A stretch of DNA of 64,000 nucleotides from positions 43,762 through 107,761 of the forward strand of contig CACZZO010000010.1 in NCBI GenBank assembly GCA_902785755.1. The letters run 5' to 3'. The notes under the pieces were generated by a model. It did not search any database, was not told the origin of the DNA, and saw only the letters and a program-made list of their open reading frames with translations. The position numbers and the translations under genes are program-made. Positions 9,740 through 56,241 of the stretch are shown piece after piece. The first letter of the stretch is position 1. Each line of letters starts with the position of its first letter. Origin of the DNA: an uncultured Bacteroidia bacterium (GTDB lineage Bacteria; Bacteroidota; Bacteroidia; Bacteroidales; F082).

Positions 9740-9801
9740 CCAAATCAAAAATTCAAGTCACATAAACGTTTTTTTTCCTATCTTGCGCCCAAATTAATCG
9801 A

Positions 9802-11096: not shown

Positions 11097-12002
11097 ATGA
11101 AACCAACATTATTAGTTTTAGCAGCAGGCATGGGCTCGCGTTATGGTGCCCTGAAACAGATGGACGGTGTCGGTCCCAACAACGAAGCCATCCTTGATTA
11201 TTCCATTTACGACGCCAAGCGCGCCGGTTTCGGCAAGGTGGTCTTCGTCATCCGCGAGGACTTCGCCGAGGCCTTCAAGAAAGTGAACAACACGGAGAAA
11301 TTCGGCATCCCCGTGGAGTATGTGTACCAATCACTTGACAAATTGCCGGAAGGATTCAGCGTTCCCGAAGGGCGCGTGAAACCTTGGGGCACCTGCCACG
11401 CCGTGCTGATGGCCAAGGACGTGATTCACGAGCCCTTTGCCGCCATCAACGCAGACGATTTCTATGGCAAGGAAGCCTACGAGGTCTTGGCCAAGTATCT
11501 CATGGAATGTGATGGTAAAAAAGGCGCTTACAGCATGGTCGCCTACAAACTGCGCAACACCATGTCAGACTTCGGCACGGTGAGTCGCGGTATTTGCACT
11601 GCCGACGCGGAAGGCAACCTTCAGACCATCGTCGAGCGCACAGCCATCGGACACACCGAAGACGGTGGCGCGGCCTACACCGACGAAACTGGCTCGCATC
11701 CACTTGACATGGATTCCCTCGTTTCGATGAACTTCTTCGGCTTTACGCCCGACTTCTTTGAATATTCGGAGAAGGGTTTCGTCGAGTTCCTGAAAGGCCC
11801 TGCCCAAACCAACATCAAGGCGGAGTTTTTCATTCCGCTGATGGTGAACCAAAGCATCCACGACGGTTCGGCCAAACTGAAGGTGCTGTCGAGCAACGCT
11901 TCATGGTTCGGCGTGACCTACAAGGAAGACAAGCCCGAAGTGATGCGGAAGATTCGCGAACTGATTGAAAAGGGAGTTTACCCTAATAAGTTATGGAGTT
12001 AA
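11097..12002 (+). CDS. sugar-phosphate nucleotidyltransferase (NTP_transferase fold), specificity unknown
   Basis: 301 aa. N-terminal LVLAAGMGSRYG..K nucleotide-binding loop. It sits between galK and galM. Confidence 0.75.
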   Translation: MKPTLLVLAAGMGSRYGALKQMDGVGPNNEAILDYSIYDAKRAGFGKVVFVIREDFAEAFKKVNNTEKFGIPVEYVYQSLDKLPEGFSVPEGRVKPWGTCHAVLMAKDVIHEPFAAINADDFYGKEAYEVLAKYLMECDGKKGAYSMVAYKLRNTMSDFGTVSRGICTADAEGNLQTIVERTAIGHTEDGGAAYTDETGSHPLDMDSLVSMNFFGFTPDFFEYSEKGFVEFLKGPAQTNIKAEFFIPLMVNQSIHDGSAKLKVLSSNASWFGVTYKEDKPEVMRKIRELIEKGVYPNKLWS

Positions 12003-12003
12003 A

Positions 12004-12086
12004 AATGCGGAATTATGAATGCGGAATGCGGAATCCGCAATGCGACGCTGGGCTTCGCCCTATTCCGCATTCCGAATTCCGAATTA
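12004..12086. repeat. inverted array of GCGGAAT words forming a long hairpin between the nucleotidyltransferase gene and galM
   Basis: CGGAATGCGGAAT (12022-12034) pairs perfectly with ATTCCGCATTCCG (12062-12074). The outer AATGCGGAATT/AATTCCGAATT pairing extends the stem. Confidence 0.7.
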
Positions 12087-12096
12087 AACAAAAGCA

Positions 12097-13149
12097 ATGA
12101 ACATCGAAGTAAAAACTTGGGGAAAAACCCCTGACAATAAAGACATTAAACTTTACACCCTGACTAATGCCAACGGTGTGAAGGTGCAGTTGAGCGACAT
12201 CGGCGCGGGCATCGTGAGCATTGTCACGCCCGACCGCTACGGACACATGGAAGACATCGCCCTCGGCTATCCCCATCCGTGGGATTACTACAACGACGGT
12301 CCATGCGCGGGCAAAACTCCCGGACGCTTTGCCAACCGTATCGGCTACGGTCGCTTCAAGATCGACGACAAGGAATACCAGCTTGAGCAGAACAAAGACG
12401 GCAAACACCACCTCCACGGCGGCAGCATCGGATTTGCTAACCAGAAGTGGGCCAGCCGCATCAATGGCGAGAGCGTCGTTTTCACCTACCTTTCTGCCGA
12501 CGGCGAGGCTGGCTATCCCGCCGAGTTGGTGTCGAAAGTATACTACACCCTCAACGATGAGAACGAGTTGAACATCCGCTTGTGCGCCTATTCTTCGGCC
12601 ACAACCATCGTCAACCTGACCAACCACACCTATTTTAATTTAAAAGGCGAAGGCAACGGCGACATCCTCGACCATAAACTGCGCCTGAACGCCTCGCGCT
12701 TCCTACCTGCCACCGAGGAGCTCATCACCACAGGCGAAATGCGTCAAGTGGCTGACACCCCGATGGATTTCACCGAAGGCAAACTCATCGGGCGCGACAT
12801 CAAGGAGCCCTATCCCGACCTCATCAACGGCAAGGGCTACGACAGCTGCTGGGTCATCGACGGCATTGAGAAGGACAAACTCTGCCTTGCCGCCGAGTTG
12901 TCGCATGAAGATACAGGCCGCATGGTGAAGATTTACACCACACAGCCTGGCATTCAGGTCTATACAGGCAACTGGCTTTCGGGTTGTCCGAAGGGCAAGA
13001 ACGGCCATGTTTACGAGGACTATTCCGGCGTGGCCTTGGAGTGCCAAGCCCTCCCCGACTCACCCAACAAGCCCAACTTCCCGAACACCATTTTGCGCTC
13101 AGGCGAGGAATATTTGGAAACGATTATCTTTAAATTTTCAACGTTATAA
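12097..13149 (+). CDS. galM: aldose 1-epimerase (galactose mutarotase)
   Basis: 350 aa. GRFANRI...F..D...Y.L..N.....HLHGG motifs of the aldose-1-epimerase family. Confidence 0.9.
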   Translation: MNIEVKTWGKTPDNKDIKLYTLTNANGVKVQLSDIGAGIVSIVTPDRYGHMEDIALGYPHPWDYYNDGPCAGKTPGRFANRIGYGRFKIDDKEYQLEQNKDGKHHLHGGSIGFANQKWASRINGESVVFTYLSADGEAGYPAELVSKVYYTLNDENELNIRLCAYSSATTIVNLTNHTYFNLKGEGNGDILDHKLRLNASRFLPATEELITTGEMRQVADTPMDFTEGKLIGRDIKEPYPDLINGKGYDSCWVIDGIEKDKLCLAAELSHEDTGRMVKIYTTQPGIQVYTGNWLSGCPKGKNGHVYEDYSGVALECQALPDSPNKPNFPNTILRSGEEYLETIIFKFSTL

Positions 13150-13155
13150 TGAAAA

Positions 13156-13309
13156 GGAACTACGAATCAAACGAATTAAGCGAATATATTGTAATTATGG
13201 TTTAACAGATGAAGCTGCGTATTTTTACTAATTCGTACAAATCCGCAACAAAGTTGCAAAATCTATCTCAATCAATTCGTGTCATTCGTGAAACGTGAAA
13301 TTCGTAGTT
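13156..13309. repeat. inverted arrays of CGAAT / ATTCG words between galM and gluP
   Basis: Left array: ctACGAATcaaACGAATtaagCGAAT. Right array: caATTCGTgtcATTCGTgaaacgtgaaATTCGTAGtt. The terminal AACTACGAAT/ATTCGTAGTT pair perfectly. Confidence 0.6.
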
Positions 13310-13344
13310 AAGTAATTCATGTAAAATCTTTAAAATAAAAAATA

Positions 13345-14634
13345 ATGAGTACAAAAACGAAACAATGGGGCGCCATCATCGTCATGATCGCCCTGTTCGC
13401 CATGATCGCTTTCGTGACCAACCTCTGCTCACCGATGGCCGTCATCGTGAAAAACCAATTCGGCGCCAGCAACTTCCTGTCGCAAATCGGCAACTACGGC
13501 AACTTCATCGCCTACCTCGTCATGGGTATCCCTTCAGGTATGCTGATTAAGAAATTCGGCTACAAAAAGACCGCACTGATGGCCCTTGCCGTGGGCATTG
13601 TCGGTATCCTCGTGCAATGGGCCAGCGGCAGCATGGGCTTCGGTGTCTATCTCATCGGTGCCTTCATCGCCGGTTTCTGCATGTGTATGTTGAACACCGT
13701 CGTGAACCCGATGCTGAACCTCCTTGGCGGTGGCGGCAACAAGGGCAACCAACTCATCCAAATCGGCGGCGTGTTCAACTCGGCGGCTGCAGTGGCGGTT
13801 TACATTCTCATGGGTGCGCTCATCGGCGAGGCCACCAAGGCTAAGATTTCCGATGCCACTCCTGCCCTGCTGATTGCCTTGGCCATCTTTGTCATCGGCT
13901 TCATCGTCATCCTCTTTACCAAAATTGATGAGCCACAACAGCCTGTGGAAGTGAAATCGGAAGTGAAAGACAAATACAGTGCCTTCTCGTTCCGCCACTT
14001 CAAACTCGGCATTTTGGCCATCTTCCTTTATGGCGGCATCGAAGTGGGTACGCCGACCTACATCCTTCAGTATCTGACTTCTGAGCCGACAGCAGCCACA
14101 CCCGGCATCGGCATGAGTGGCACTATCGCGGGTCTTATTGTGGCCGTCTATTGGCTGATGATGCTCATCGGGCGTTTCATCGGGGGTGCTATCGGCGGAA
14201 AGGTTTCTTCCAAGGCTATGGTGACCACCGTTTCCATCGCGGCCATCGCCCTTGTGCTGTTTGGTATGCTTGCTCCGCAAACTTGGCAAGTCAAAGTCCC
14301 TGGCATCGACTGGGCCAATTTGAAGGTGATTTGGGCGCAAGTCCCCGTTGGCATCTTCGCCTTCATCCTCGTAGGTCTTTGCACCTCCGTGATGTGGGGC
14401 GCCATCTTCAACCTTGCTACCGAAGGCCTCGGTAAATACACAGCCATCGCCTCTGGTGCCTTTATGACTATGGTCTTCGGCTTCGCCATCATGGTGGGTC
14501 TGCAAGGCCTCGTCGCCGACTGGACGGGCAGCTACATGACCAGTTATGTGGTCGTTCTGTTCTGCGCCGCCTACATCCTCTTCTACGCCCTCGTGGGTTC
14601 GAAGAACGTGAACAAGGACATCCCAGTCGACTAA
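13345..14634 (+). CDS. gluP: MFS sugar:H+ symporter, glucose/galactose (GluP/FucP-type) transporter
   Basis: 429 aa with about 12 hydrophobic helices. The N-terminal region is typical of the FucP/GluP subfamily, and the gene lies in the gal cluster. Confidence 0.8.
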   Translation: MSTKTKQWGAIIVMIALFAMIAFVTNLCSPMAVIVKNQFGASNFLSQIGNYGNFIAYLVMGIPSGMLIKKFGYKKTALMALAVGIVGILVQWASGSMGFGVYLIGAFIAGFCMCMLNTVVNPMLNLLGGGGNKGNQLIQIGGVFNSAAAVAVYILMGALIGEATKAKISDATPALLIALAIFVIGFIVILFTKIDEPQQPVEVKSEVKDKYSAFSFRHFKLGILAIFLYGGIEVGTPTYILQYLTSEPTAATPGIGMSGTIAGLIVAVYWLMMLIGRFIGGAIGGKVSSKAMVTTVSIAAIALVLFGMLAPQTWQVKVPGIDWANLKVIWAQVPVGIFAFILVGLCTSVMWGAIFNLATEGLGKYTAIASGAFMTMVFGFAIMVGLQGLVADWTGSYMTSYVVVLFCAAYILFYALVGSKNVNKDIPVD

Positions 14635-14660
14635 TTGCTTTGTCCAAGTCCCACAAGAAG

Positions 14661-14691
14661 AAAGGGGATTGCCAACCAGCAGTCCCCTTTT
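14661..14691. terminator. bidirectional terminator between convergent gluP and the OMP gene
   Basis: AAAGGGGA-14 nt-TCCCCTTT. The A/T runs on both sides are part of the stem. Confidence 0.65.
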
Positions 14692-14714
14692 GTTGTTTAT
14701 GATAGATGTAATCC

Positions 14715-15434
14715 TCAGAAACTGAATCCGATGCGAGCCAGAATCATCATGGGTCTGATAGAAGAACCATTAGGCATTGGAGTTGTGATGATGTTGCCGG
14801 TTTTTTCTGCCTTCACAGTGGCTTTACCCAAGTTATAGAAACTGCAACCAATCACCAAGTTCTTCGCCACTTCCAAACCAGCACCCACTTGAAAAGCAAA
14901 ACTCAAAGCGGTTTCGTAATTGACATTTCCAGTGTGCTTTTCACCCAAAACATCCTTGTAGCTCTCGGAATAATTGGTGATGAAGCGGGCATCACCACCA
15001 GCACCGGCCTCGATAAACAAGCCCAAATTAGAGTTGAAGTGATGCATGTAATTCAAGCCCAACATCACGGGAACATTGAAATACTTAGGAGTGGATATTG
15101 TGACATTGTTTCCCAAAAGATCCAATGCGTTTTCCCTGTTTTTGTAGAAATTCTTCGCGCCATCATTAAGGCCATTATAAAAACCGTCTATTGAAAGCAG
15201 CACTCCCAAACCGGGAACTCCCATGTTGAAATACCATTTGACACCTGCATTGAATCCCAACGAGGCTGCGGCATCATCCTCGTCAGATATCAAAGCGAAT
15301 CCGTCATCATATTCTGCATAATCTTTCATCGGGAAAGCAGCACTCAGAAACATGGCACCACGTGTTTGTGCCACAGCCTGACCGCAAAACACCATCGCAG
15401 CGGCCAATGCGAAAACTTTTACTAATTTGTTCAT
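14715..15434 (-). CDS. outer-membrane beta-barrel protein (small porin/OmpW-like), hypothetical
   Basis: 239 aa. Signal peptide ...CGQAVAQ, alternating amphipathic strands, and a C-terminal aromatic residue (IGFSF). Confidence 0.6.
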   Translation of the reverse strand: MNKLVKVFALAAAMVFCGQAVAQTRGAMFLSAAFPMKDYAEYDDGFALISDEDDAAASLGFNAGVKWYFNMGVPGLGVLLSIDGFYNGLNDGAKNFYKNRENALDLLGNNVTISTPKYFNVPVMLGLNYMHHFNSNLGLFIEAGAGGDARFITNYSESYKDVLGEKHTGNVNYETALSFAFQVGAGLEVAKNLVIGCSFYNLGKATVKAEKTGNIITTPMPNGSSIRPMMILARIGFSF

Positions 15435-42567: not shown

Positions 42568-43353
42568 ATGACTGACAAAAAGATTATACTTATAGCATTT
42601 GGTGTGACATTTACCACAATAGTGTTTTATGCCATCTGTTTTTGGGGAACGGAGGTTTCTAAAAATACTACCGATTGGGGAGCATTTGGTAATTATTTAG
42701 CAGTAGGGGTTAGCATTTTTTCAGTAGCACTCATTTACATAACTTACCGAGAACAAAGAAAAACAAATGAGATCACTCGTTCAGAGCATCATATTGCAAC
42801 AATGCTAAAAACATTAGATGCATTATCTATGAAAAACCAATCAAGAATAGAAACTACATATTTTAACATATTAGAGCATTTCAAAGTGCCTTTTTATGAT
42901 TTATCCGAATATGAATACGAAAAGATTGTAAAAGTCTGCATATTCTATTACTCTTTAGCATTGGGAGAAAAAGAGGACTCAATAAAACTTAATTATTATT
43001 TTCAATATCTAAACTTGTGTATAGACAATATCATTCATAACAAAACATTATCCAAAGAGCAGATACAGCTTCATATAACAGAATTGTCATGCGTATTAAC
43101 AGAAGATTCAAGATTGCTGTTTTTCTTCTGGTTGTTGATTAGTGATCGTATTGTATTAGATTCATATTACAAGTACGGATTATTCATTATTAATGACGAG
43201 GCTTCACCTCTTTTAAAGGATATAGTTAGCTACATTTGTTCGGGTAAATGTCCAACAAAAAGTCAGACTCGGAATTTTAATGGAGAGGACATAATACTTG
43301 ATGATTATTCCAAGGAAAAATTCTCTGATTCATATTCAAGAATGTTTAAATGA
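42568..43353 (+). CDS. 2-TM membrane protein resembling the putative-AbiC abortive-infection family
   Basis: 261 aa and AT-rich. Two N-terminal helices, the second of which (DWGAFGNYLAVGVSIFSVALIYITYREQRKTNE) follows the AbiC-like pattern ...G.fG.......s...IY.[ST][FY].EQ.K.N as I recall it. The stop overlaps the next start. Confidence 0.5.
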   Translation: MTDKKIILIAFGVTFTTIVFYAICFWGTEVSKNTTDWGAFGNYLAVGVSIFSVALIYITYREQRKTNEITRSEHHIATMLKTLDALSMKNQSRIETTYFNILEHFKVPFYDLSEYEYEKIVKVCIFYYSLALGEKEDSIKLNYYFQYLNLCIDNIIHNKTLSKEQIQLHITELSCVLTEDSRLLFFFWLLISDRIVLDSYYKYGLFIINDEASPLLKDIVSYICSGKCPTKSQTRNFNGEDIILDDYSKEKFSDSYSRMFK

Positions 43354-46300
43354 CACGAATTATGAAACCGAATTCAAATTCTAAACGTTTTTTTGCCACA
43401 TTAGTGGCACTGGTCCTTCCTGTTTTACTATTGGGACAGACGCAATACGACTACTATGACGATGGTGCAGTTGCTGGAGGTGTGGACCGAGCATTAAAGG
43501 GTATTATTATCATTGGAGGAATTATAGCCGTAGTCATTGTTCTTGCGCTGATACTATATGTTGTAGCAAAGGTTTATTTGTGGTTTAATCCAGTGGCAAA
43601 CCCTGAACACAAAAGAACTATGGCTGCAACAGAGAAGGAAAGAGAAATGACTGTCGGAAAAGGAAATACGAAAGAAAAGGATAATCTCTCTGTTACCTCA
43701 AATGAAGAAAAGCCTATTTCCAAGAATGCAGACACGGTAGAATCAGAAGTAGTGAACCCTGCTTTCCCTGTTTCGAGATTGAGCAATGATGAATTAGAAT
43801 GTATTAAAAGCCTTATTAACCCATCAAAAGAAGAAACCGAAAAGACAAAGACTGACTTAAACTGCAAATATGGTTTTGCTTCTTATACACAGGACTATAA
43901 AAAGTTTGTATGTCTTAGTTTTAGCTACTGCTACATTGCAGAAGGAACAAAAGCGGTTCTAAAAATCTTAGATGGTACCGAGACAATCTGTTCAAATGCA
44001 ATAGATAGCGACTATCAACAACAAGTTATTCTACCTGATTCTCTCTTATACATTGGTGACAATTCAATTAAATGTAAATCCCTAAAGGAGATAATTTTAC
44101 CACAGTCATTAAAATTTATTGGAGACTTCGCGTTTTTTGGATGTGAGAATCTTCAGAAAATCACTATACCTTATGGCGTAAGTCATATAGGTATTGCTGC
44201 CTTTTCTAATACAGGAATAAAGGAAATCGTTTGTAATTCGCCCATTTTTTCCATTAAAGATCACTGTCTTTTTGACGACAGTGGGCATAGGATGATAAAA
44301 TACTTTGGGTCGGCGGACAAAGTAATAGTTCCTTCTGACGTAAATGACATTAATGGTGCATTCGCTGGCTGTAAGGATATTGAATATATAACACTTCCAC
44401 AAAGATTGCCTATTATAGGCGACCGAACTTTTATGAATTGTACTCGACTGAAAGAGATAATAATACAAAGTGGGCTTCAAGAAATAGGCCGCTGTGCATT
44501 TATGCAATGTCAAAGTTTGGATCACATTGTTATTCCGGAAGGTGTAACAATAATTGAGGAATTCTGTTTTTATTATTGCCAAAATCTCCGTTATATTGTA
44601 TTACCTAGTACTATAGAACAAATTGGCTCAAAAAATGCAGAGTTTTCTAATTTTGAAATCTTTGATGACAATTGTATTTCATTGAGACATATTTTTATTC
44701 CAGAAGGAACGAAAGAAAAATTTAAAAAGTTCTTCTCTGAAAAGATACTGGTTGAAGGTACTCCAGAGGAGTACTTTGCTAGAGTTCAAGAGATTGAAAC
44801 GACAACTGTTCCCGACGAAAAATTGATCACTACCACAACCAAACAAGATATTCAGGAAGGATGGACGGATGAATTTGGATACCGTTATAGCGCCGATGGA
44901 AGAAGGCTGTTAAGTCGAACAGGATTCTTTCAAGTAGTAAAAGACTATCAAGTAAAAGAAGGTACTGTTGTAATATGTGATGGCGTTTTTAAAGACAGCT
45001 CATTGGAAACTATCGACCTTCCCGATTCAGTAAAAAAAATAGGTGACAGTACCTTTTCTGGTTGCAAGCATCTTAAACGCATTAAAATACCATCAACTAT
45101 AAACTATTTCGGGACAGGGGTTTTTAGTGGGTGTTCATCTCTCCAAAGCATTTCACTTCCTCCTTCATTAGAAATGATAAGGAAATATATGTTCAATGGT
45201 TGCTCATCGCTTAAAGAAATAAACATCCCACTTGGTGTAAAAGAAATCCATGAACGAGTTTTTTATAATTGTAGTTCTTTAAGAGAATTGATTATCCCAG
45301 AAGGTGTTGAATTTATAGGTGATAATGCATTTGGTGGATGTAGTAAAGTTCAAGAAATTACACTTCCAACTACACTAAAAGAAATAGAAGGTAATCCATT
45401 TGGGGATACAATTTCATCAATAGGAGAAAAACAGTATTCCGTGGTTTGTAAATCACCACATTTTTCCAATGAGAACGGAGCTTTATACACTATTGACAAA
45501 AAAACACTGGTTTCTTGTCTTTCTAGTGAGACCAGATTTGAAGTTGTCGAAGGGACAATTAAAATTGGTGATGGTGCATTTTATGGAAATAGTTGTTTGG
45601 AATCAATCGTATTACCTTCAACAATAGTCGAAGTTGGGAACAATGCTTTCTGTGGTTGTTATTTCACACGCATTCTTTTACCGAACTCCATTAAAAAAAT
45701 AGGAGATTTCGCCTTTGGTAATTGCGAATACCTTTCAAAAATAGTTATTCCAGAAGGACTTGAGTATTTGGGAAAGGAGGCGTTTTGGGGGTGTGAACGG
45801 ATTTCGGAACTTGTATTACCGAAGACTCTTTGTACAATTGAGAAAGAGGTTTTTAGGGGGTGTGATTCATTAAGAAGTATTACAATACTCAATCCTAATA
45901 TCATTATTGACGATGAAGCTTTTAGTTTTACAGAACTACAACAGATAGAGTTTGCTGGAATCCCTTCTGTAGTCAATGGAGACCCTTTTTGTTGGGCAGA
46001 TAATCTCAAAGAGATTATTGTACCTTGGGGCACCAAGAAACAGTTCTGCTTGCTATTTCCTTCAAAAAAAGATATCATCAAGACAAAAAGCAAGGCAAAA
46101 GATGCAAACAAACAAGAGCAATTAGATTTATCAACTGAAATAACCGAACAATACAAAGCTGAAATCGAAGCATGTAAAGATGATAGCGATTTCATTTATT
46201 CTAAAGACGGCAGAAAACTATTATCTTGTGAGCGCAAAGAGACTTTAGATGAGCCTATGCCTTTTGAAGACGAGAATGGTCGATGGGTACTAATTTATAA

Positions 46301-47015
46301 CAATCGTATAATGGGCTATGATGAATACAATTCAAGGATGGACCTTTGGAATGACGAATTCTACTACGAGGTAACACCAGGAACACAAATAATATGCGAC
46401 AAAGCTTTTTCGCGATGCGAAAGTTTAGGAGAAATTCGCATACCTGAATCTGTTAAAGCCATTGGAATACGTGCGTTTGAGGACTGCAAATCATTGAAAC
46501 GGTTTACCTTCCCATCGGAAATAAAGGTTGTTAAGGAAAATTGCTTTATAGTCTGTACCAGTTTAATATCTGTCAAACTTCCAGATTCCTTGGAAATAAT
46601 AGAGAAAGGTGCTTTTGGAGCTTGTAATAAACTAAATAAAATAGAATTTCCAGAAACAGTCAAAACCATCGGTTTTGCGGCTTTTCAAGGTTGTCCACTG
46701 GAAGAAATCAATTTACCTAAAAACTTGGAAGAAATTGAAGCAATGGCGTTCTGTTATACAAAAATCAAAGAATTAAAAATTCCTAAAGAGGTTAAGGTTA
46801 TAGGCAGAAAAGCATTTCTTGATTGCTTTAATTTAAAGACGATAGAATTTGAGGGTGTTGATGTTGAATGCGACAATGCGGCTTTTGTTATCTCTACTGA
46901 TGCCGAAGGACATTATCGGAAAATGCAGTTAGACACGATTTATGTTCCTAATGGTACTAAGTCTATATTTGCATCCAAGTTTCCTGATTATCAAGAAATA
47001 ATTATAGAGAGATGA
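43350..47015 (+). CDS. 1221-aa membrane-anchored BspA-type leucine-rich-repeat (LRR_5) protein
   Basis: Signal-like FATLVALVLPVLLLGQ, then one TM helix (IIIIGGIIAVVIVLALILYVVAKVYLWF) and a charged linker. At least 4 blocks of ~23-aa LRR_5 repeats follow (LKEIILPQSLKFIGDFAFFGCENLQKITIP...). There is no T9SS C-terminal domain. Confidence 0.8.
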   Translation: MTRIMKPNSNSKRFFATLVALVLPVLLLGQTQYDYYDDGAVAGGVDRALKGIIIIGGIIAVVIVLALILYVVAKVYLWFNPVANPEHKRTMAATEKEREMTVGKGNTKEKDNLSVTSNEEKPISKNADTVESEVVNPAFPVSRLSNDELECIKSLINPSKEETEKTKTDLNCKYGFASYTQDYKKFVCLSFSYCYIAEGTKAVLKILDGTETICSNAIDSDYQQQVILPDSLLYIGDNSIKCKSLKEIILPQSLKFIGDFAFFGCENLQKITIPYGVSHIGIAAFSNTGIKEIVCNSPIFSIKDHCLFDDSGHRMIKYFGSADKVIVPSDVNDINGAFAGCKDIEYITLPQRLPIIGDRTFMNCTRLKEIIIQSGLQEIGRCAFMQCQSLDHIVIPEGVTIIEEFCFYYCQNLRYIVLPSTIEQIGSKNAEFSNFEIFDDNCISLRHIFIPEGTKEKFKKFFSEKILVEGTPEEYFARVQEIETTTVPDEKLITTTTKQDIQEGWTDEFGYRYSADGRRLLSRTGFFQVVKDYQVKEGTVVICDGVFKDSSLETIDLPDSVKKIGDSTFSGCKHLKRIKIPSTINYFGTGVFSGCSSLQSISLPPSLEMIRKYMFNGCSSLKEINIPLGVKEIHERVFYNCSSLRELIIPEGVEFIGDNAFGGCSKVQEITLPTTLKEIEGNPFGDTISSIGEKQYSVVCKSPHFSNENGALYTIDKKTLVSCLSSETRFEVVEGTIKIGDGAFYGNSCLESIVLPSTIVEVGNNAFCGCYFTRILLPNSIKKIGDFAFGNCEYLSKIVIPEGLEYLGKEAFWGCERISELVLPKTLCTIEKEVFRGCDSLRSITILNPNIIIDDEAFSFTELQQIEFAGIPSVVNGDPFCWADNLKEIIVPWGTKKQFCLLFPSKKDIIKTKSKAKDANKQEQLDLSTEITEQYKAEIEACKDDSDFIYSKDGRKLLSCERKETLDEPMPFEDENGRWVLIYNNRIMGYDEYNSRMDLWNDEFYYEVTPGTQIICDKAFSRCESLGEIRIPESVKAIGIRAFEDCKSLKRFTFPSEIKVVKENCFIVCTSLISVKLPDSLEIIEKGAFGACNKLNKIEFPETVKTIGFAAFQGCPLEEINLPKNLEEIEAMAFCYTKIKELKIPKEVKVIGRKAFLDCFNLKTIEFEGVDVECDNAAFVISTDAEGHYRKMQLDTIYVPNGTKSIFASKFPDYQEIIIER

Positions 47016-48904: not shown

Positions 48905-50074
48905 ATGGATACCTTATTATTCAGATACCATAACCTGCTTAAGGAAACCGACACGAGTTTCTTGCGCTACCTGCACGACATCATTCCTTGGAACGATAGA
49001 ATGATTGCCATCGTGGGTAGCCGCGGCGTGGGAAAAACCACAATGCTGCTCCAACATATCAAACTGCATCTCCCCATGGAGAAAACGATGTATGTGTCGG
49101 CAGACGACCTCTATTTCTCCGATCATAGTCTGTTTGACTTAGCGCGGCAGTTCCACCAATTGGGTGGCGAACACCTTTTCATCGACGAGGTCCACAAATA
49201 CGCCAATTGGTCACAGGAGCTGAAAAACATCTACGACGCCGTTCCCCAACTGCAAGTGGTCTTCACTGGGTCGTCGATATTGGATATCTATCACGGAACC
49301 AGCGACTTGTCGCGCCGCGTACTGACTTTTACCTTGCACGGCATGTCGTTCCGCGAATACCTTTCCATGAAAAAAGGCATCCAAATCCCAGTCCACTCCT
49401 TGGACGACATCATGCAACACAAAGTGAATGTCGAGGGCTTGGATTATCCCTTGGCCGCCTTCCGGGATTACTTGCGGCAAGGCTACTATCCTTTTGCCGA
49501 CAGCACAGGCTTCGACATCCGCCTGATGAATGTGGTCAATCGCGTTATTGAGACCGACATCCCACTCTATGCAAAGCTCAATATCAGTTCCACAGTGAAG
49601 ATGAAACGGTTGCTCAGTGTGATTGCGGCCAGTGTGCCTTTCAAGCCCAACATCAGCAAATTGGCTGGCATTTTGGACCTCAGCCGAGAGACCTTGAATG
49701 ACTACCTTGAATACATGACTCGTGCTAAACTGCTCAACACCCTGCGCGACTCCACCCAAGGCATCAGAGGCTTGGGCAAAGTGGATAAAATGTATCTCGA
49801 AAACACCAACCTTGCCTACGCATTGACACTGCAGCCTGAAATTGGCAATATCCGTGAGACATTCTTCCTCAACCAGTTACAAGTGAATCATCAAGTGCAA
49901 ACCGCTGCAAAGTCCGATTTTCTGATTGATGGCACCTATACCTTTGAGATTGGCGGAGAAAACAAGCAACAGAAACAGATTACCGGAACAACCAATGCTT
50001 TCGTTGTAAAAGACAACATCGAATTTGGGGCGTTTAATGTATTACCACTTTGGCATTTCGGGTTGATGTATTGA
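48905..50074 (+). CDS. AAA_14 + DUF4143-type ATPase (orphan)
   Basis: 389 aa. Walker A GSRGVGKTT and Walker B LFIDEV, with a C-terminal region typical of DUF4143 proteins. Confidence 0.8.
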   Translation: MDTLLFRYHNLLKETDTSFLRYLHDIIPWNDRMIAIVGSRGVGKTTMLLQHIKLHLPMEKTMYVSADDLYFSDHSLFDLARQFHQLGGEHLFIDEVHKYANWSQELKNIYDAVPQLQVVFTGSSILDIYHGTSDLSRRVLTFTLHGMSFREYLSMKKGIQIPVHSLDDIMQHKVNVEGLDYPLAAFRDYLRQGYYPFADSTGFDIRLMNVVNRVIETDIPLYAKLNISSTVKMKRLLSVIAASVPFKPNISKLAGILDLSRETLNDYLEYMTRAKLLNTLRDSTQGIRGLGKVDKMYLENTNLAYALTLQPEIGNIRETFFLNQLQVNHQVQTAAKSDFLIDGTYTFEIGGENKQQKQITGTTNAFVVKDNIEFGAFNVLPLWHFGLMY

Positions 50075-50097: not shown

Positions 50098-50120
50098 TAA
50101 TGTGTATAAATTACACATTA
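50098..50120. promoter_or_regulatory. perfect palindrome TAATGTGTA-TAAAT-TACACATTA (candidate operator 1)
   Basis: 9-bp arms read directly from the sequence. The core is GTGTA-N5-TACAC. Confidence 0.5.
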
Positions 50121-50166: not shown

Positions 50167-50181
50167 GTGTAAATTTTACAC
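50167..50181. promoter_or_regulatory. perfect palindrome GTGTAAA-T-TTTACAC (candidate operator 2)
   Basis: Same GTGTA-N5-TACAC core, 32 nt upstream of the -7 box. A degenerate third copy, GCGTCAAATTTACAC, lies at 50220-50234. Confidence 0.5.
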
Positions 50182-50212
50182 ATTTTTCCATTGCGGGTAT
50201 CGGGAAAAGCTG

Positions 50213-50220
50213 TACTTTTG
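50213..50220 (+). promoter_or_regulatory. -7 box TACTTTTG for the Nudix/NrtR-like gene
   Basis: 17 nt upstream of ATG 50238, flanked by GTGTA-N5-TACAC palindromes. Confidence 0.55.
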
Positions 50221-50237
50221 CGTCAAATTTACACAAG

Positions 50238-51053
50238 ATGGAAAAGCAAAGCTACACTTACAAGTATCCCCGCCCCGCCGTGACCACAGACTGTGTGGTG
50301 TTCGGCTTCGACGGGCGCGACCTCAAAATCCTGCTCATCGAGCGCGGAATTGAGCCTTTCAAAGGCTGCTGGGCCTTCCCGGGCGGATTCCTCCAGATGG
50401 ACGAGACCGCCGAACAAGGCGCACTGCGCGAACTGAAAGAGGAAACAGGACTGGACTTGCGCTACATCAAACAGGTTGGGGCTTTCAGCGACGTGAACCG
50501 CGACCCGCGCTCCCGCGTCATCACCATCGCGTTCTACGCCTTGGCGAGGAAATCGGCGGTGCAAGGCGGCGACGATGCCGCACGTGCACAATGGTTTGCC
50601 CTCAACGACATACCGCACCTCGCTTTCGACCACGACTACATCCTGCGCAAGACCATGGACAAATTGAGGCACGACATCCATTTCGAGCCTATCGGATTCG
50701 GCCTTTTGGACGAACAATTCACCATCCCAGAGCTGCAACGCCTCTACGAAGCCATCCTCGGCGTACACTTCGACCGCCGCAACTTCCACAAGAAAATGCT
50801 GCAAACCGGCATCCTTGAAGAAGTGGATGACTTTGAAGAAGCCCCTCCCTCCTATTTTGGCGACCGCCGCGAGATGCGAAGCATGGACATCGGAGCCTTG
50901 TTTGGCGGCATGATGGCCTCCGAGCCGAAAGCCTCCTACGCTGCACGCGACGACGACAGCCGCTCGACCCGCAGATGGGGCACCAAATTCCGCTTCAACA
51001 AAAAACGCTACGACGAATTCAAGGAAGACAATAACTTTAAGTTGGAATTTTGA
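50238..51053 (+). CDS. Nudix hydrolase fold fused to an NrtR-like winged-helix domain (putative ADP-ribose-responsive regulator)
   Basis: 271 aa. Complete Nudix box GFLQMDETAEQGALRELKEETGL. The C-terminal DHDYILRKTMDKLRHDI...FTIPELQRLYEAILGVHFDRRNFHKKM resembles the NrtR DNA-binding domain. Confidence 0.7.
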   Translation: MEKQSYTYKYPRPAVTTDCVVFGFDGRDLKILLIERGIEPFKGCWAFPGGFLQMDETAEQGALRELKEETGLDLRYIKQVGAFSDVNRDPRSRVITIAFYALARKSAVQGGDDAARAQWFALNDIPHLAFDHDYILRKTMDKLRHDIHFEPIGFGLLDEQFTIPELQRLYEAILGVHFDRRNFHKKMLQTGILEEVDDFEEAPPSYFGDRREMRSMDIGALFGGMMASEPKASYAARDDDSRSTRRWGTKFRFNKKRYDEFKEDNNFKLEF

Positions 51054-51117
51054 TTAGTTTGGAGTTGAAAGTTGACAGTTAAAGGGCTGTTACACCGTGG
51101 CAGCCGACAATCCCGAT

Positions 51118-51176
51118 ATTTGAAATCCTGAAATCTTGAAATTTGAAATCCCGAAATTATTAAATATAAAATCTTA
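51118..51176 (+). repeat. tandem ~8-nt TGAAATC-type words upstream of the vWA-fusion gene
   Basis: TTTGAAATCCTGAAATCTTGAAATTTGAAATCCCGAAATTATTAAATATAAAATCTT. Confidence 0.8.
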
Positions 51177-51190
51177 AAAAACAAAAAGTT

Positions 51191-52285
51191 ATGGAAACAA
51201 AATCCACCTCAAAGACGCAGGTCTATAACCTGATTATCCTCGACAAGAGCGGCTCGATGGGCAGCATCGCCAACGCCGCCATCGCCGGATTCAACGAAAC
51301 CGTAGGCGGCATCCGCTCCGCCCAAGAACGCTTCAAGGACACGCAAGAGCATTTTGTCTCGCTGATGATTTTCTGCAATTGCGAGAAAACGTTGGTCTAC
51401 GACAAGGTACCCGTCGCCGAAGTCAAGGAACTGACAAGAAACGAATACCGTCCTTGCTGCGGAACGCCGCTGTATGACGCTATGGGATTGTCCATCAATG
51501 CCTTATACAACGACATCAAGGACAAGGAAGATGCCACCGCCGTGGTGACCGTCATCACCGACGGGCTTGAAAACGCATCGAAGGAATACAGCGGCGCGGC
51601 CATCAAAGCCCTCGTAGAGCGCATGAAGGACGAGGAAGGCTGGAACTTCGCCTACATCGGCACCAACCAAGACGTGCAGGCCACTTCCGCCTCGCTTTCC
51701 ATCGACAACCACATGGCCTTCGCCGACGACGATGCCGGAATGCGCGAGGCTTGGGCCAAAGAGCGCAAGTCGCGCACAATGATGTACAGCCGCCTCGAAG
51801 AAGAACGGGAAATGACTGCCGCCATGCCCAGTTTCGCCCGAAAACTGTTCCGCTCCAAGTCGAACCGCGAAAACCGCAACTATCGTGAAATGAGTGAGTT
51901 CAGCCATCGTGTTACGCCCGACAACATCAGAAGTCTCGGCAGAAACGAAATCTTCGTTTTCGGCAGCAACCTCGCTGGTGCTCACGCTGGCGGCGCGGCT
52001 CGAATTGCCCGAATGAACTTTGGAGCCATTTGGGGTCAAGGTGTTGGTTTGCAAGGCCAAAGCTATGCCATCCCCACGATGCAAGGTGGCGTGAACACCA
52101 TCAAGCCTTACGTGGACGAGTTCATCGCCTTCGCCTTGCAGCATCCCGAGATGACTTTCCTCGTCACCAAGATAGGCTGCGGCATCGCTGGCTTCACCCC
52201 TGCCGAGATTGCGCCGCTGTTTGCCGGTGCCGTCAATGTGGAAAACATTCATTTGCCGATGGATTTTTGGACGGAGTTGGTGTAA
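51191..52285 (+). CDS. vWA domain (intact MIDAS) fused to a ~125-aa domain of a small phage/bacterial family of unknown function
   Basis: 364 aa. MIDAS residues DKSGSM...GTPLYD...TDGLEN. The C-terminal IFVFGSNLAGAHAGGAARIA...GQSYAIPT...TKIGCGIAGFTPAEIAPLF matches a family I recall being named the A1S_2505 family phage non-structural protein. That name is from memory and unverified. Confidence 0.65.
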   Translation: METKSTSKTQVYNLIILDKSGSMGSIANAAIAGFNETVGGIRSAQERFKDTQEHFVSLMIFCNCEKTLVYDKVPVAEVKELTRNEYRPCCGTPLYDAMGLSINALYNDIKDKEDATAVVTVITDGLENASKEYSGAAIKALVERMKDEEGWNFAYIGTNQDVQATSASLSIDNHMAFADDDAGMREAWAKERKSRTMMYSRLEEEREMTAAMPSFARKLFRSKSNRENRNYREMSEFSHRVTPDNIRSLGRNEIFVFGSNLAGAHAGGAARIARMNFGAIWGQGVGLQGQSYAIPTMQGGVNTIKPYVDEFIAFALQHPEMTFLVTKIGCGIAGFTPAEIAPLFAGAVNVENIHLPMDFWTELV

Positions 52286-52287
52286 TT

Positions 52288-52320
52288 GGTTGAGAGTTTA
52301 GGGTTTAGAGTTTAGTGTTG
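52288..52320 (+). repeat. tandem 7-8-nt GTTTAGAG-type words upstream of the ARH gene
   Basis: GGTTGAGAGTTTAGGGTTTAGAGTTTAGTGTTG. The same word family occurs in reverse complement at 27505-27545. Confidence 0.75.
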
Positions 52321-52345
52321 AAATTCAAAATAGGAGATAATAATC

Positions 52346-53200
52346 ATGTTAGGAGCAATTATTGGAGATGCCGTTGGTTCGGTATATGAGTTCAACAACA
52401 TAAAAACTACAGAATTTCCGCTGTTTGGACCACGAAACAACTACACCGACGACAGCATCATGACCATAGCCGTGGCCGACTGGCTTTTGACCGACCCGCA
52501 GCATGGCATGGACACCTTGGAAGCCTCATTTTTAGGCTTCGCCAAGAAGTACCCTTGTCCTATGGGTGGCTATGGTGGTGGGTTCCATCGATGGCTGTTC
52601 CATCCCGAAGAGTTAGGTGATTATGGGAGTCGCGACTTCAAACTCGGGGCACGTCATCCTTACAATTCATTCGGCAACGGAGCCGCTATGCGTTGCAGCG
52701 CGAACGGCTGGATGTTCGACAGCTTGGAAGAAACGGAGCGTGTGGCTGGCCTTTCGGCAGCCATCACCCACAGCCATCCCGAGGGTATCAAAGGAGCGCA
52801 ATCAACGGCGGCAGCCATTTTCATGGCACGCAACGGCAAGAGCAAGGATGAGATAAGGGATTACATCTCAACGAAATACAGTTACAACCTCAACCGCACT
52901 TGCGACGAGATTCGTCCTGTCTATGACTGGGATTCTTCATGCCAAGGCACGGTTCCGGAAGCAATGGTGGCCTTTTTTGACAGCACCGATTTCGAGTCGG
53001 CCATCCGCCTCGCCGTCTCGTTGGGTGGCGACAGCGACACCCTTGCTTGCATCACTGGTGGCATCGCGGAGGCGTTCTACAAGGTGATTCCCAACGACAT
53101 CGCCTTGAAAATCTGGGCACTGCTCCCCGATGAATTCAAGGACATCTTGAAGAAGATGGAGGCTCAAACGAGCTATCAATTGCCGAACATTCTGAAATAA
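52346..53200 (+). CDS. ADP-ribosylglycohydrolase family protein
   Basis: 284 aa. N-terminal GAIIGDAVGSVYEF...TDDSIMT and C-terminal GGDSDTLACITGGIAEAFY are hallmark ARH/DraG motifs. Confidence 0.85.
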   Translation: MLGAIIGDAVGSVYEFNNIKTTEFPLFGPRNNYTDDSIMTIAVADWLLTDPQHGMDTLEASFLGFAKKYPCPMGGYGGGFHRWLFHPEELGDYGSRDFKLGARHPYNSFGNGAAMRCSANGWMFDSLEETERVAGLSAAITHSHPEGIKGAQSTAAAIFMARNGKSKDEIRDYISTKYSYNLNRTCDEIRPVYDWDSSCQGTVPEAMVAFFDSTDFESAIRLAVSLGGDSDTLACITGGIAEAFYKVIPNDIALKIWALLPDEFKDILKKMEAQTSYQLPNILK

Positions 53201-53229
53201 GGGGAAACCATATAAAGATTATGAGCGAA

Positions 53230-53261
53230 GCCGAGAAAAGTCCCCGCTTTTCTCGGCTTTT
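53230..53261 (+). terminator. terminator after the ADP-ribosylglycohydrolase gene
   Basis: GCCGAGAAAAG-tccccg-CTTTTCTCGGC (11-bp perfect stem) followed by TTTT. Confidence 0.75.
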
Positions 53262-53325: not shown

Positions 53326-55320
53326 TTAACCCATTGTTGAAATCAATTGACTCAATGTTGTATCTGTATATGTCCTCCATATTCTCAATCGGATAGGCTT
53401 ATAATCATCAAAAAGTTGCTTGATAAACCCAATCTCAAAGACAAGTCTCAAATCATTAGGATTATTTTCTGGTTGACCTTCTTTGCGAGTGCCAACACGA
53501 GCTTTTTTAATCAGATAAAGGTCACGGACACCTTTGCCCTTGATGTAAGGCATAAAATAAAACAGGCAGTTGAGTTCAACTGTTGATGGAAACTTTTTAC
53601 CTGTGTAATAAATCTTTGCCGATTGGCTAAGGAATTGTTCAATATTGTCGGATTTAACGTTGCAAATCAAAACATTATTTGTGTTCCTTGTGCCTTCACT
53701 TAATCCATAATTAGAAAAGCTTTCACTAGCAACACTATTATCAACAATAGAACTTGGAAATTGTTGGAGAATATCGAGAAAATCCAGCTGCTTATATTGC
53801 AGCCTCTCTGTTTTCACATCGTTATTATTTCCCATATACAGGTCATAAAAAATCTCATCTAACTCCTTTTGATCTATTTCGATATCAAATTTCCCTTGCT
53901 CTATCGTTGATATTATTCTCTCTACAATACTCTCAACTCTTATACGCACATTTTTACTTGGTTGAATAAACGGGATTTTTTTTATATAATTAGCCGAGTT
54001 GTTTGTTGAGGGATTAATGGTATTAATTAATTCAGAACAAATAGCAGAATTGAAAAAACCCAAAAGATAATTTGTCCATGTTTCATCGTTCGGAAATACT
54101 CCAACAATTGATTGATCAAACAACCTTTCTTCTATAAGGGCACCCGTTAAACTTGACGATCGTATCATGGGAATTCCGATACCTTTTTTAAAATAATAAC
54201 CAGAATTTTGGAACCTGCATTTCTTGCTATTATGGTACTCCATCAATGCTTGAACCGACCAATCCATAAACCACCGATCAGGTTTTACATATCGAACATT
54301 TCCTCCCTTTACTATTGGCACGAAACATTGATGAGTTTCTATGCCCCTTGTTTTTTCCATTTCTGTTAATGCCGTATATCTAATATCCTCCTTTTTCACA
54401 CAAATATATTTCTTCGCATTTTTTGATGATTCATCAAGTGGATGTAAATACTTTTTGTCGTTTCCAGAATAAAAACCTGTTACACAACTTGCAATATTCC
54501 CGATTTTTAGTAATGTTTTATTATTAATAAGCCGTGTTAATTGTTTTGTTGAATTAAACATAAATGCAGCTCCGACTCCTTCATAAACTGCTTTTTGGGA
54601 AACAAATCGAGTAATTCCTTTGCTTCTGTTTCCCAAATCTTCTATGAAATTAAAACCTGTTCTAATAGTTATGTTATTATATAAATTCTCATGAAGGTCA
54701 GATGATTTTACAAGTGTGATAATACACAGATTTGCATAACCGAAATTAACTCCAGGAAAAAAAGATGATGGAAACAGGGCAAGCTCGCGTATTTTTGTAT
54801 TGGTTAGCAAGTATTTTCTAATTGCAATGTGTCTGTGCAATGACAAAAAAGTATCTGGAATAATGAAACTTAACTCACCGTTTTCTCTTAAACACCGAGT
54901 ACACGCATATAAAAACAAAGTGTAACTCTCTTTTATATATAAGTCTGAATATAATCTATGAAGTAATGCTTTTTTCTCCTCATCAATTCTGGCACCATAA
55001 GGTGGGTTCCCGATTATCTTGTCAAAAAGATGACTACAAGTTGTTATCTCTTTATCAATAAGAGTGTCTGTCTCCTTAATATAAATGTTGCTTTGCTGCT
55101 TATATTTTTCACGGAGTAATTCAACCGCTTTGGGATTTAATTCATAAATACTTATATTTGAAAAAGAAGATTTCTCTAGAATCTTGTCTACAAAGACCCC
55201 ATCACCTCCACATGGTTCTAATATAGAATCTTGTGGTTGAAGATTAAGCATATCTGTCATATAACTTAAAATTGGGTCTGATTTTGTATAATAGGCCTGA
55301 AAAGTCAGTTTCTCATTCAT
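53326..55320 (-). CDS. N6-adenine DNA methyltransferase (gamma class, Eco57I-like) with unassigned ~150-aa C-terminal extension
   Basis: 664 aa and AT-rich. Motif I EPCGGDGVFV, motif IV IGNPPYGA. The long TRD-like middle region and the C-terminal domain are unassigned. Confidence 0.8.
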   Translation of the reverse strand: MNEKLTFQAYYTKSDPILSYMTDMLNLQPQDSILEPCGGDGVFVDKILEKSSFSNISIYELNPKAVELLREKYKQQSNIYIKETDTLIDKEITTCSHLFDKIIGNPPYGARIDEEKKALLHRLYSDLYIKESYTLFLYACTRCLRENGELSFIIPDTFLSLHRHIAIRKYLLTNTKIRELALFPSSFFPGVNFGYANLCIITLVKSSDLHENLYNNITIRTGFNFIEDLGNRSKGITRFVSQKAVYEGVGAAFMFNSTKQLTRLINNKTLLKIGNIASCVTGFYSGNDKKYLHPLDESSKNAKKYICVKKEDIRYTALTEMEKTRGIETHQCFVPIVKGGNVRYVKPDRWFMDWSVQALMEYHNSKKCRFQNSGYYFKKGIGIPMIRSSSLTGALIEERLFDQSIVGVFPNDETWTNYLLGFFNSAICSELINTINPSTNNSANYIKKIPFIQPSKNVRIRVESIVERIISTIEQGKFDIEIDQKELDEIFYDLYMGNNNDVKTERLQYKQLDFLDILQQFPSSIVDNSVASESFSNYGLSEGTRNTNNVLICNVKSDNIEQFLSQSAKIYYTGKKFPSTVELNCLFYFMPYIKGKGVRDLYLIKKARVGTRKEGQPENNPNDLRLVFEIGFIKQLFDDYKPIRLRIWRTYTDTTLSQLISTMG

Positions 55321-55323
55321 AAA

Positions 55324-56241
55324 TCACCAAATAAGATAGTTTTGCAAATTGTTGTTAATTACCACATTTCTCATTTCTGTAGTGAAATCATTCAACCAAT
55401 CAATGTTATTAGAAATCCAAGTATGAATGTCAAATCCTGTAAACTGATGGATTTTTTCATATGAATCAATTCCACAAAAAGTCTCCCATACGCCCGAGTT
55501 TTGAAGTGTGGTCAAATAATGATTGTTCTCGGTTGATCGAACAAAAATCAAACATTTGTATTCTTCTGTTTCAATGTTTTTATAAATACTACCTACCAAT
55601 AAAAGTCTATTGGTGTTTCCCTTCTCATTAGACCCAAAGCCACTTTTGAAGTCAACAATGTATTTATTTGATCCATCAGTAAAATGCAAGTCGCATTCCA
55701 ATTGGATTTCTCCAGAAGTCACAAGATTCCACACTTTATCATAGTATCTTTTCAACCTATCTTTGTCTTGAACATCAATTCCTAATCCGTCAATATATGT
55801 ATTAATTTCAGTGGTCAAATTCTGTTTTACTTCAGAAAATAGAGGTGGTATGAATAGCCTTATATTGTTTAATGGAAAGCTAAAACAAAGCTTACAAAAC
55901 GGCTCCCATAGTTCACCAACTCTTCGTGAGAATGCCATATATTCATATTCCCAAATAGAATTTCTACCTTCAAACATAACCACATCACATGTATAGGTTA
56001 TCATTAGAACACTTTCCAAGATTTCTTCATTTGACCAATTCTCGTTTCTGGCTCTTTCTAAAAGAATTGAAACTATAGAATCTTTGCTTCTGATTATTGA
56101 TTTATTAAAAGCTGATGCCTTTTTCTTGTAATCGTTTGCTGAGAATTGTATTTCAAGTTCACTTAATATTTCCTTCGAACGATTTCTGAAATAACTAAGC
56201 AACTCATTTTTTCTATATCTCAAACCATTATCAATATCCAT
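55324..56241 (-). CDS. candidate type II restriction endonuclease (PD-(D/E)XK-like), partner of the methyltransferase
   Basis: 305 aa and AT-rich. It lies 3 nt upstream of the MTase on the same strand. Candidate catalytic pattern ...ECDLHF...YIVDFKSG (D...D.K). No family recognised. Confidence 0.5.
   Translation of the reverse strand: MDIDNGLRYRKNELLSYFRNRSKEILSELEIQFSANDYKKKASAFNKSIIRSKDSIVSILLERARNENWSNEEILESVLMITYTCDVVMFEGRNSIWEYEYMAFSRRVGELWEPFCKLCFSFPLNNIRLFIPPLFSEVKQNLTTEINTYIDGLGIDVQDKDRLKRYYDKVWNLVTSGEIQLECDLHFTDGSNKYIVDFKSGFGSNEKGNTNRLLLVGSIYKNIETEEYKCLIFVRSTENNHYLTTLQNSGVWETFCGIDSYEKIHQFTGFDIHTWISNNIDWLNDFTTEMRNVVINNNLQNYLIW

Follow-up and report, generated by a model that had tools for sequence, protein, structure and literature searches.

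A Bacteroidales operon of an NrtR-like regulator, a vWA-macro-like fusion protein, and an ADP-ribosylglycohydrolase with a predicted role in ADP-ribose processing

Host systems that act against viral ADP-ribosylation have been predicted computationally (Iyer, Burroughs, Anand, de Souza, and Aravind 2022, Viruses 14:1977, PMC9503650, section 3.8). These ADP-ribosylglycohydrolase (ARG)-centric systems contain, in addition to the ARG, a Nudix-helix-turn-helix (HTH) or WYL repressor, phosphatases, peptide-binding chaperones including vWA proteins, and, optionally, Macro or NADAR domains. They have been found in actinobacteria, planctomycetes, and proteobacteria, and approximately 55% of them have a coupled phosphatase. 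Our literature search found no experimental work on systems of this type. Here, we describe a three-gene operon at positions 50238-53200 of a 64,000-nt stretch of DNA from an uncultured Bacteroidia bacterium (contig CACZZO010000010.1; the whole stretch is called the window below). The operon encodes a Nudix-winged HTH (wHTH) regulator of the NrtR type, a fusion of a vWA domain with an A1S_2505 family domain, and an ADP-ribosylglycohydrolase (ARH/ARG family). It is a Bacteroidales variant of the system class predicted in 2022, and it is built on an unannotated macro-like domain. The original prediction, made from the DNA sequence, knew of no described system with this vWA fusion. The fusion was indeed not found in PMC9503650, but a class with the same components was described there.

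The operon shares several features with ARG-centric systems. The ARH is uncoupled from any transferase or sirtuin among the neighboring genes, which were scanned with Pfam from 34.6 to 63.8 kb of the window. The gene for a one-component Nudix-HTH repressor is the first in the operon. The vWA domain corresponds to the vWA "peptide-binding chaperone" of the published systems, and an accessory domain of predicted macro type is a candidate for ADP-ribose processing, with modules that are gained and lost variably. In four related genomes, a kinase-AAA+ ATPase fusion (approximately 600 aa) and a YbjN-family protein (125-153 aa) are encoded directly upstream of nrtR (positions 2667-4565 in L006, and the same place in L017, L019, and L037). 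This pair recalls the TY-chaperones of the ARG-centric systems. There are also clear differences. In the published systems the ARG is the center and evolution is rapid. Here, the constant core is NrtR and vWA, the latter in most loci joined to the macro-like domain, and ARH can be dispensed with. The operon keeps its place in the core genome and diverges at an ordinary rate. Module variability is nonetheless seen in the relatives, with loss of ARH and relocation of the A1S_2505 domain. Rhodanese, HD, and calcineurin phosphatases are absent from the window, and a low-molecular-weight phosphatase (LMWPc) directly follows the operon in two relatives only (L001 and L011). The operon contains neither a restriction endonuclease nor an ARPP effector. 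Its phylum, Bacteroidota, is unmentioned in the text of PMC9503650.

The three open reading frames are on the plus strand: nrtR (271 aa, 50238-51053), the vWA-macro-like fusion gene (364 aa, 51191-52285), and the ARH gene (284 aa, 52346-53200). An intrinsic terminator with a 15-pair stem, a 4-nt loop, and a T-run follows the third gene on the same strand (53227-53260). This is the arrangement of three co-directional genes ending in a strong terminator that the original prediction had described. The spacer between nrtR and the vWA gene is variable, ranging from approximately 23 to approximately 190 nt among the relatives, and it is only about 23-25 nt in L001, L006, L008, and L009. Rfam searches of the spacers found no riboswitch or other known RNA. 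Tandem repeats are present in both spacers of the window, TTGAAATC in four to five copies at 51118-51173 and GTTTAGA in four copies at 52288-52321. Similar A/T-rich repeats are also seen 5' of an oligopeptidase gene in L035.

The gene set was followed through related genomes, using one genome per species, which gave 42 loci. Nearly all are labeled as metagenome-assembled genomes (MAGs) of uncultured Bacteroidales or Bacteroidia, many of them from ruminants. The nrtR gene adjoins the vWA gene in all 40 related loci that have upstream sequence, and ARH comes next in 27 of the 39 informative ones. The modules can also be arranged differently. Three loci (L039, L041, and L042) have a stand-alone vWA gene, and their A1S_2505 domain is placed in frame at the C-terminus of ARH. 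L040 has only NrtR and vWA, and L001 carries an additional stand-alone A1S_2505 gene. Fusions with approximately 50% identity still keep company with an NrtR gene, divergent or upstream (L044 and L046), or with an overlapping downstream ARH gene (L045). The genes are thus syntenic in other genomes. The conservation of the gene set, together with the upstream palindromes described next, in approximately 40 related genomes is more than chance.

Two palindromes of the form GTGTA-N5-TACAC are located in front of nrtR. The distal one, GTGTATAAATTACAC (50102-50116), is an exact match at about -136 from the nrtR ATG, and the proximal one, GTGTAAATTTTACAC (50167-50181), is at -71, directly 5' of a -33-like TTG. 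A putative Bacteroidetes-type promoter extends over 50191-50220 on the plus strand, with TTG (50191-50193), 19 nt of spacing, and TACTTTTG (50213-50220), which fits TAnnTTTG. We take the TTG and TAnnTTTG elements to correspond to the Bacteroides -33/-7 consensus. A third, degenerate site, GCGTCAAATTTACAC (50220-50234), overlaps the predicted transcription start and may also act as an operator. In an upstream alignment of 12 loci, the core bases of the proximal palindrome are invariant, the TTG and TACTTTTG elements are invariant or nearly so, and the GCGTCAAATTTACAC block just 5' of the ATG is invariant in all 12. Next to the TAnnTTTG element is an invariant block, GCGTCAAATTTACACAA. The distal palindrome lies at -124 to -137 in most related loci and the proximal one at about -70 to -82. 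These positions hardly shift between genomes, even at protein identities of only 62-97%. In 457 kb of related loci, exact copies of GTGTA-N5-TACAC number 54, and all 54 are upstream of nrtR, as are both copies in the 64-kb window. This strong comparative evidence points to autoregulation of the nrtR operon, in which the regulator would bind the palindromes.

The regulator has the two domains expected of such a protein. Pfam NUDIX matches residues 14-135 (E-value 2.6e-21), and the C-terminal half, with a winged helix starting at residue 153, matches PF21906 NrtR_WHD above its cut-off (1.9e-18). A complete Nudix box fused to an NrtR-type winged helix, as first proposed, is therefore present, and so is a DNA-binding fold. 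The Nudix box GFLQMDETAEQGALRELKEETGL conforms to GX5EX7REUXEEXGU, and its catalytic E/RE/EE residues do not vary among 40 orthologues. The best relative in the Protein Data Bank (PDB) is DNA-bound BtAraR (5bs6; 1.4e-44), Shewanella NrtR scores lower (1.9e-27), and the protein aligns across both domains to each of them. Against the NCBIfam NrtR equivalog NF050029 it scores 127 bits, below the cut-off of 400 bits. The closest solved relative, BtAraR, senses arabinose. Like Shewanella NrtR (3GZ5/3GZ6; Rodionov et al. 2008; Huang et al. 2009) and Bacteroides AraR (5BS6), the window protein combines Nudix with a winged helix, has tandem palindromic operators at its promoter, and is probably an autoregulated repressor. 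It differs from them in that the genes of its operon belong neither to NAD biosynthesis or salvage nor to arabinose utilization. No regulon for NAD biosynthesis or salvage was seen, the operon carrying the vWA-macro and ARH genes and the window no further exact operators. The complete and invariant catalytic box is another difference, as is a lineage-specific insertion of approximately 45 aa that splits the winged helix.

This insertion (residues ~200-250, window 50835-50990) lies between the recognition helix and the wing, and it contains a conserved EM(R/K)S..IG.LF motif. The homologue in L046 lacks it, and its C-terminus is the same FKLEF motif that ends the window protein. We had considered this C-terminal tail as a docking peptide for the MIDAS (metal ion-dependent adhesion site) of the vWA domain. 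The idea was rejected because L046 identifies FKLEF as the wing of the winged helix, which is displaced by the insertion.

Pfam searches with the second gene product gave no match, and even the VWA family of Pfam was not reached at E 0.01; searches of PDB sequences gave nothing meaningful. The full-length AlphaFold2 model (predicted local distance difference test, pLDDT, 87) consists of a vWA domain (residues 9-176, nt 51215-51718, plus strand), a helical linker (residues 181-240), and a compact alpha/beta domain. Foldseek comparison of this model with the PDB gave 150 matches at E<=1e-3; vWA or integrin I domains make up the 50 that were listed. Homologues with identities down to 50% (33-35 sequences) keep the MIDAS residues D18, S20, S22, T92, and D124 without exception. 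A vWA domain with an intact MIDAS fused to a further C-terminal domain had been proposed from the sequence, and these results bear it out. In PHROG searches, the halves of the protein fall into two different phage families, phrog_7371 and phrog_2072.

The C-terminal domain (residues 253-363, nt 51947-52279, plus strand) belongs to the A1S_2505 family. Residues 254-359 match NCBIfam NF049995, "A1S_2505 family phage non-structural protein", with an E-value of 8.5e-43 and 145 bits (cut-off 45), and the alignment covers profile positions 1-109 of 109. Phrog_2072 is matched at 6.8e-35. The stand-alone phage and bacterial family to which the original prediction referred is therefore real. Pfam has no model of the family, no structure of a member has been solved, and its NCBI name is merely "phage non-structural protein". 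Our literature search found no functional study of it, although Iyer et al. 2022 may have counted it under another name. Searched exhaustively with HMMER, 1.84 billion representatives yielded 4,866 clusters (50% identity) at E<=1e-3, and the family occurs in several hundred phage genomes.

The predicted structure relates this domain to macro domains. An AlphaFold2 model of the domain alone, built with 22 diverse homologues, has a pLDDT of 95, and all of its top-50 Foldseek matches in the PDB are macro domains. Their E-values are weak (0.05-0.4). TARG1/C6orf130 (2L8R) reaches a TMq of 0.68 and a probability of 0.97, the highest values, and Poa1p, YmdB, MacroD2, and viral nsP3 are also among the 50. 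In the BFVD, the top seven matches are family members, including proteins of giant crAss-like phages, and many coronavirus and alphavirus macro domains rank below them. The model is most similar to small macro domains of the TARG1/C6orf130 and Poa1p type. Its predicted fold and the order of its secondary-structure elements agree with theirs, and its Gly-rich loops FGSN..G.H.GGAA and IGCGIAGF are located where macro domains bind ADP-ribose. In contrast to those domains, the A1S_2505 core has only approximately 110-125 aa and its own invariant Ser, His, and Cys, with no detectable profile link to Pfam Macro or any PDB chain. Pfam Macro, Macro_2, and PARG did not match at E<=0.01, and the family profile found no macro chain among the PDB sequences. 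We consider a macro fold likely, as the model predicts, and do not class the domain as a demonstrated member of the Macro family. SLOG and NADAR folds had been suggested for testing along with Macro; neither was among the top-50 PDB matches and the BFVD matches listed, which gave macro domains instead.

The fusion partners of A1S_2505 suggest that it is linked to ADP-ribose. In 142 proteins scanned of the 150 best representatives, the domain is fused to ARH (18), microbial PARG (7), DUF1810 (6), DSP-type phosphatases (3), NADAR (1), and Nudix (1). Five further fusions to vWA came from local searches. In P0142, a Nudix domain very near that of the regulator is fused to A1S_2505 at the place where the wHTH would be. 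A1S_2505 remains 60-75% identical across unrelated architectures. With a predicted macro fold and with ARH, PARG, NADAR, Nudix, and phosphatase partners elsewhere, the C-terminal domain does not map to a well-characterized housekeeping enzyme.

The third gene product matches PF03747 at 2.2e-35. The binuclear-metal motifs YTDDS and GGDSDT are present and align to those of ARH3, which is the nearest solved relative (6e-16). The description of a canonical ADP-ribosylglycohydrolase therefore stands. In the closest relative of the window (L035/L036, 96-98% identity), the L035 locus has the same terminator directly 3' of the vWA-macro stop codon, with no ARH in between, and so ARH is an optional cassette within the transcription unit. 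The orthologous hairpin in L035 has an inverted loop. The central 6 nt are TCCCCG in the window (53241-53246) and the reverse complement CGGGGA in L035 (~622-627), and the stems are the same. This looks like a small hairpin-loop inversion.

We propose that these genes form a self-repressed, ADP-ribose-inducible operon that reads and removes ADP-ribose adducts or derivatives. Sequence comparison and modeling give the parts, their predicted folds, their conserved linkage, and the operators; the ligand, all of the enzyme activities, the repression, and the trigger are inferred, and we put the probability of this reading at approximately 55%. A dimer of the NrtR family would bind the operators that bracket the promoter, keeping expression of nrtR, vWA-macro, and, where present, ARH low, as expected from the family. 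Use of NAD+ by ADP-ribosyltransferases or NADases, or the cleavage of adducts, would release free ADP-ribose or a close derivative. Binding of this compound to the Nudix domain would release the regulator from DNA, by analogy with characterized NrtR proteins. In the induced vWA-macro protein, the macro-like domain may bind or hydrolyze the ADP-ribosyl group, and the MIDAS face may grip the modified, acidic protein partner, as their folds suggest. The ARH3-like glycohydrolase would take off other linkage types. The intact Nudix site of the regulator would probably hydrolyze ADP-ribose to AMP and ribose-5-phosphate, thereby resetting the switch. In line with the proposal of Iyer et al. 2022 for ARG-centric systems, the event that sets the operon off may be ADP-ribosylation by a phage or a toxin. 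Similar to DraT/DraG and DarT/DarG, the operon has an ARH- or macro-family hydrolase that would take ADP-ribose off a macromolecule. Unlike those pairs, it has no transferase partner, and it has a Nudix-wHTH repressor and a vWA module.

Several observations weigh against this proposal. The macro-fold assignment comes from a predicted structure, with weak Foldseek E-values and TM scores of at most 0.68, and lacks a sequence-profile link. Twelve of the 39 relatives, the closest among them, have no ARH. The scanned neighbors include no ADP-ribosyltransferase, sirtuin, or TIR gene. The nearest solved relative of the regulator senses arabinose and is not an NrtR that senses ADP-ribose. Furthermore, the operon proteins diverge no faster than their neighbors (79-87% versus 76-84%). 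Mean pairwise identity is 79% for NrtR, 83% for the whole vWA-macro fusion (vWA half 90%, linker 63%, macro half 83%), and 87% for ARH, compared with 76% for the neighboring porin and 84% for the neighboring Na/H exchanger. In most relatives, the operon lies between the porin (PF14121) and the Na/H exchanger on one side and PNPase and rpoD, or other housekeeping genes, on the other. Strain-specific insertions aside, there is no sign of accelerated evolution or of an island-like context. The ordinary rate and the housekeeping synteny argue against an arms-race system, and the operon behaves as a stable, vertically inherited core-genome function in this lineage.

These features would suit an operon that controls housekeeping turnover of ADP-ribose or NAD, or that reverses the regulatory ADP-ribosylation of the cell itself in the manner of DraT/DraG, with no phage or toxin conflict. 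We judge this explanation unlikely, but several observations favor it. In addition to the core-chromosome synteny and the neighbor-like divergence, the vWA-macro and ARH proteins have no match in PADLOC, in which Nudix matches PDC-S07 only weakly. Characterized NrtR proteins are metabolic regulators (Rodionov et al. 2008, cited in PMC9503650). The restriction-modification (R-M) pair (53326-56241) and the AAA_14 ATPase gene (48905-50074) that flank the operon are insertions absent from the nearest relative. The place of the operon between orphan ATPases and an R-M system had been taken as a hint of defense. Since both are strain-specific insertions relative to L035/L036, and other relatives have housekeeping neighbors, the context gives this idea no support. 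Against a housekeeping role, the operon has no NAD biosynthesis or salvage gene and no cognate ADP-ribosyltransferase among the scanned neighbors. Phages commonly carry all four domain families, judging from PHROG matches and 632 phage records, and the same four domains sit together, near Mrr and methylase genes, on DNA predicted to be mobile or viral. The variable ARH and the domain shuffling are typical of conflict modules.

Alternatively, the operon may degrade soluble NAD-derived signals or toxic metabolites, such as cyclic ADP-ribose isomers, ADP-ribose-1''-phosphate, and O-acetyl-ADP-ribose, instead of macromolecular adducts, with the vWA domain as a scaffold or regulator. The Macro, ARH, and Nudix families do include enzymes for soluble ADP-ribose derivatives (PMC9503650, sections 3.4 and 3.7.4), ARH3 also cleaves O-acetyl-ADP-ribose according to the literature, and the high identity of A1S_2505 across architectures would fit an invariant small-molecule ligand. 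However, the most conserved part of the fusion is the MIDAS-containing vWA half, and MIDAS domains bind protein ligands. With no TIR, SLOG, or sirtuin gene among the scanned neighbors either, we find this explanation improbable. It is still harder to read the regulator as an AraR-like sugar sensor, or as unrelated to ADP-ribose, in a cluster that is co-regulated for another reason. Such a reading would account for the better score of BtAraR over Shewanella NrtR and for the equivalog score far under the cut-off. In the alignment of the two proteins, however, BtAraR does not have the catalytic Nudix glutamates (RVLAEL), whereas the regulator keeps REL-K-EE, and NrtR_WHD fits the window protein far better than AraR_C does (2.1e-6, Pfam). 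The operon contains ADP-ribose-related domains only and no sugar-utilization genes, and in P0142 a Nudix domain of the same clade is joined directly to A1S_2505. We hold this reading to be highly improbable. The inference of an ADP-ribosylation module in the original prediction was not refuted by the synteny, the C-terminal domain, or the wHTH, although its argument from a defense context is weak.

Versions of the same modules are also seen outside the core chromosome. Predicted viral or mobile contigs carry ARH, a stand-alone Nudix protein, vWA (opposite strand), an HTH::A1S_2505 fusion, and an SNF2 helicase. The island in L128 (IMG/VR UViG_2558860122_000003, 3162-14837) begins with an Mrr restriction endonuclease, two C5 methylases, and an unknown protein of 487 aa 5' of ARH. 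It continues with ARH, Nudix, vWA, a sigma70-r4-like HTH fused to A1S_2505, and a 1266-aa SNF2/ResIII helicase. Its stand-alone Nudix protein is 55-59% identical to the Nudix half of NrtR. Further loci labeled viral or mobile were listed with this island (L061, L064-L066, and L129-L133), and the mobile-element version in L066 has no near match in phage or plasmid collections. In the Xanthomonas jumbo phage XacN1 (L052, AP018399.1, 1672-3603), a vWA homologue (37% identity to the window protein, 4e-25) is encoded directly 3' of an annotated poly(ADP-ribose) polymerase. The neighbors of four other phage vWA homologues were uninformative, so this single case does not make a general rule of vWA-polymerase pairing in phages.

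The A1S_2505 fold is also found inside crAss-like phage proteins of more than 1,100 aa in the BFVD (A0A7M1RZQ7 and A0A7M1RUN7, from cr116_1 and cr50_1). One crAss-like A1S_2505 protein is annotated as an "ART-PolyVal-like domain-containing protein". CrAss-like phages infect Bacteroidales. A bolder version of our proposal, which we offer tentatively and hold to be doubtful, is that A1S_2505 is an unrecognized macro clade of minimal size and distinct catalysis, marked by an invariant Ser, a His in GxH, and a Cys in GCG. Together with the MIDAS vWA domain, it would form a two-handed reader or eraser, in which the macro pocket takes the ADP-ribosyl group and the MIDAS takes an acidic residue of the modified protein. 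With a regulator that both senses ADP-ribose and destroys it through its intact Nudix box, the operon would then be a self-resetting repair circuit that rumen Bacteroidales domesticated from a mobile element against the ADP-ribosyltransferase-bearing polyvalent proteins of crAss-like phages.

The window contains several other elements around the operon. The R-M pair is of type II and is encoded on the minus strand. It consists of an Eco57I/N6-type methyltransferase (664 aa) and a restriction endonuclease (PADLOC REase_II, 3.6e-86), and its GC content is approximately 0.33, compared with approximately 0.48-0.51 around it. Its absence from the closest relative, L035, marks the pair as newly inserted between the terminator of the operon and a prolyl oligopeptidase gene. 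The AAA_14/DUF4143 ATPase upstream of the operon matches the PADLOC candidate family PDC-S01 (2.3e-26); it is an insertion relative to L036. An orphan ATPase_2 protein encoded at 58707-60128 matches the candidate defense family PDC-S27 (3.9e-201). At 43350-47015, a gene with a GC content of approximately 0.35-0.37 encodes a 1221-aa BspA-type leucine-rich repeat (LRR) protein. Its first 939 residues are 100% identical to those encoded by a gene in the MAG L032 (6006-8821), where the L032 locus ends, and the proteins of the ADP-ribose operon in L032 are merely 78% identical to those of the window. The shared LRR gene points to horizontal transfer not long ago or to a chimera made in binning or assembly.

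The systems by which hosts would reverse phage- or toxin-imposed ADP-ribosylation are, to date, genome predictions only. The operon described here is compact, with three genes and a clearly defined regulator and operators, and it is common in Bacteroidales of the rumen and gut. It is therefore a practical experimental entry to these systems. For A1S_2505, the analysis offers a concrete identity that can be tested, that of an ADP-ribose module with a macro fold. If this assignment is true, a macro-fold A1S_2505 would re-annotate thousands of proteins and would add a new clade to the erasers and readers of ADP-ribose in the conflict between phages and their hosts.

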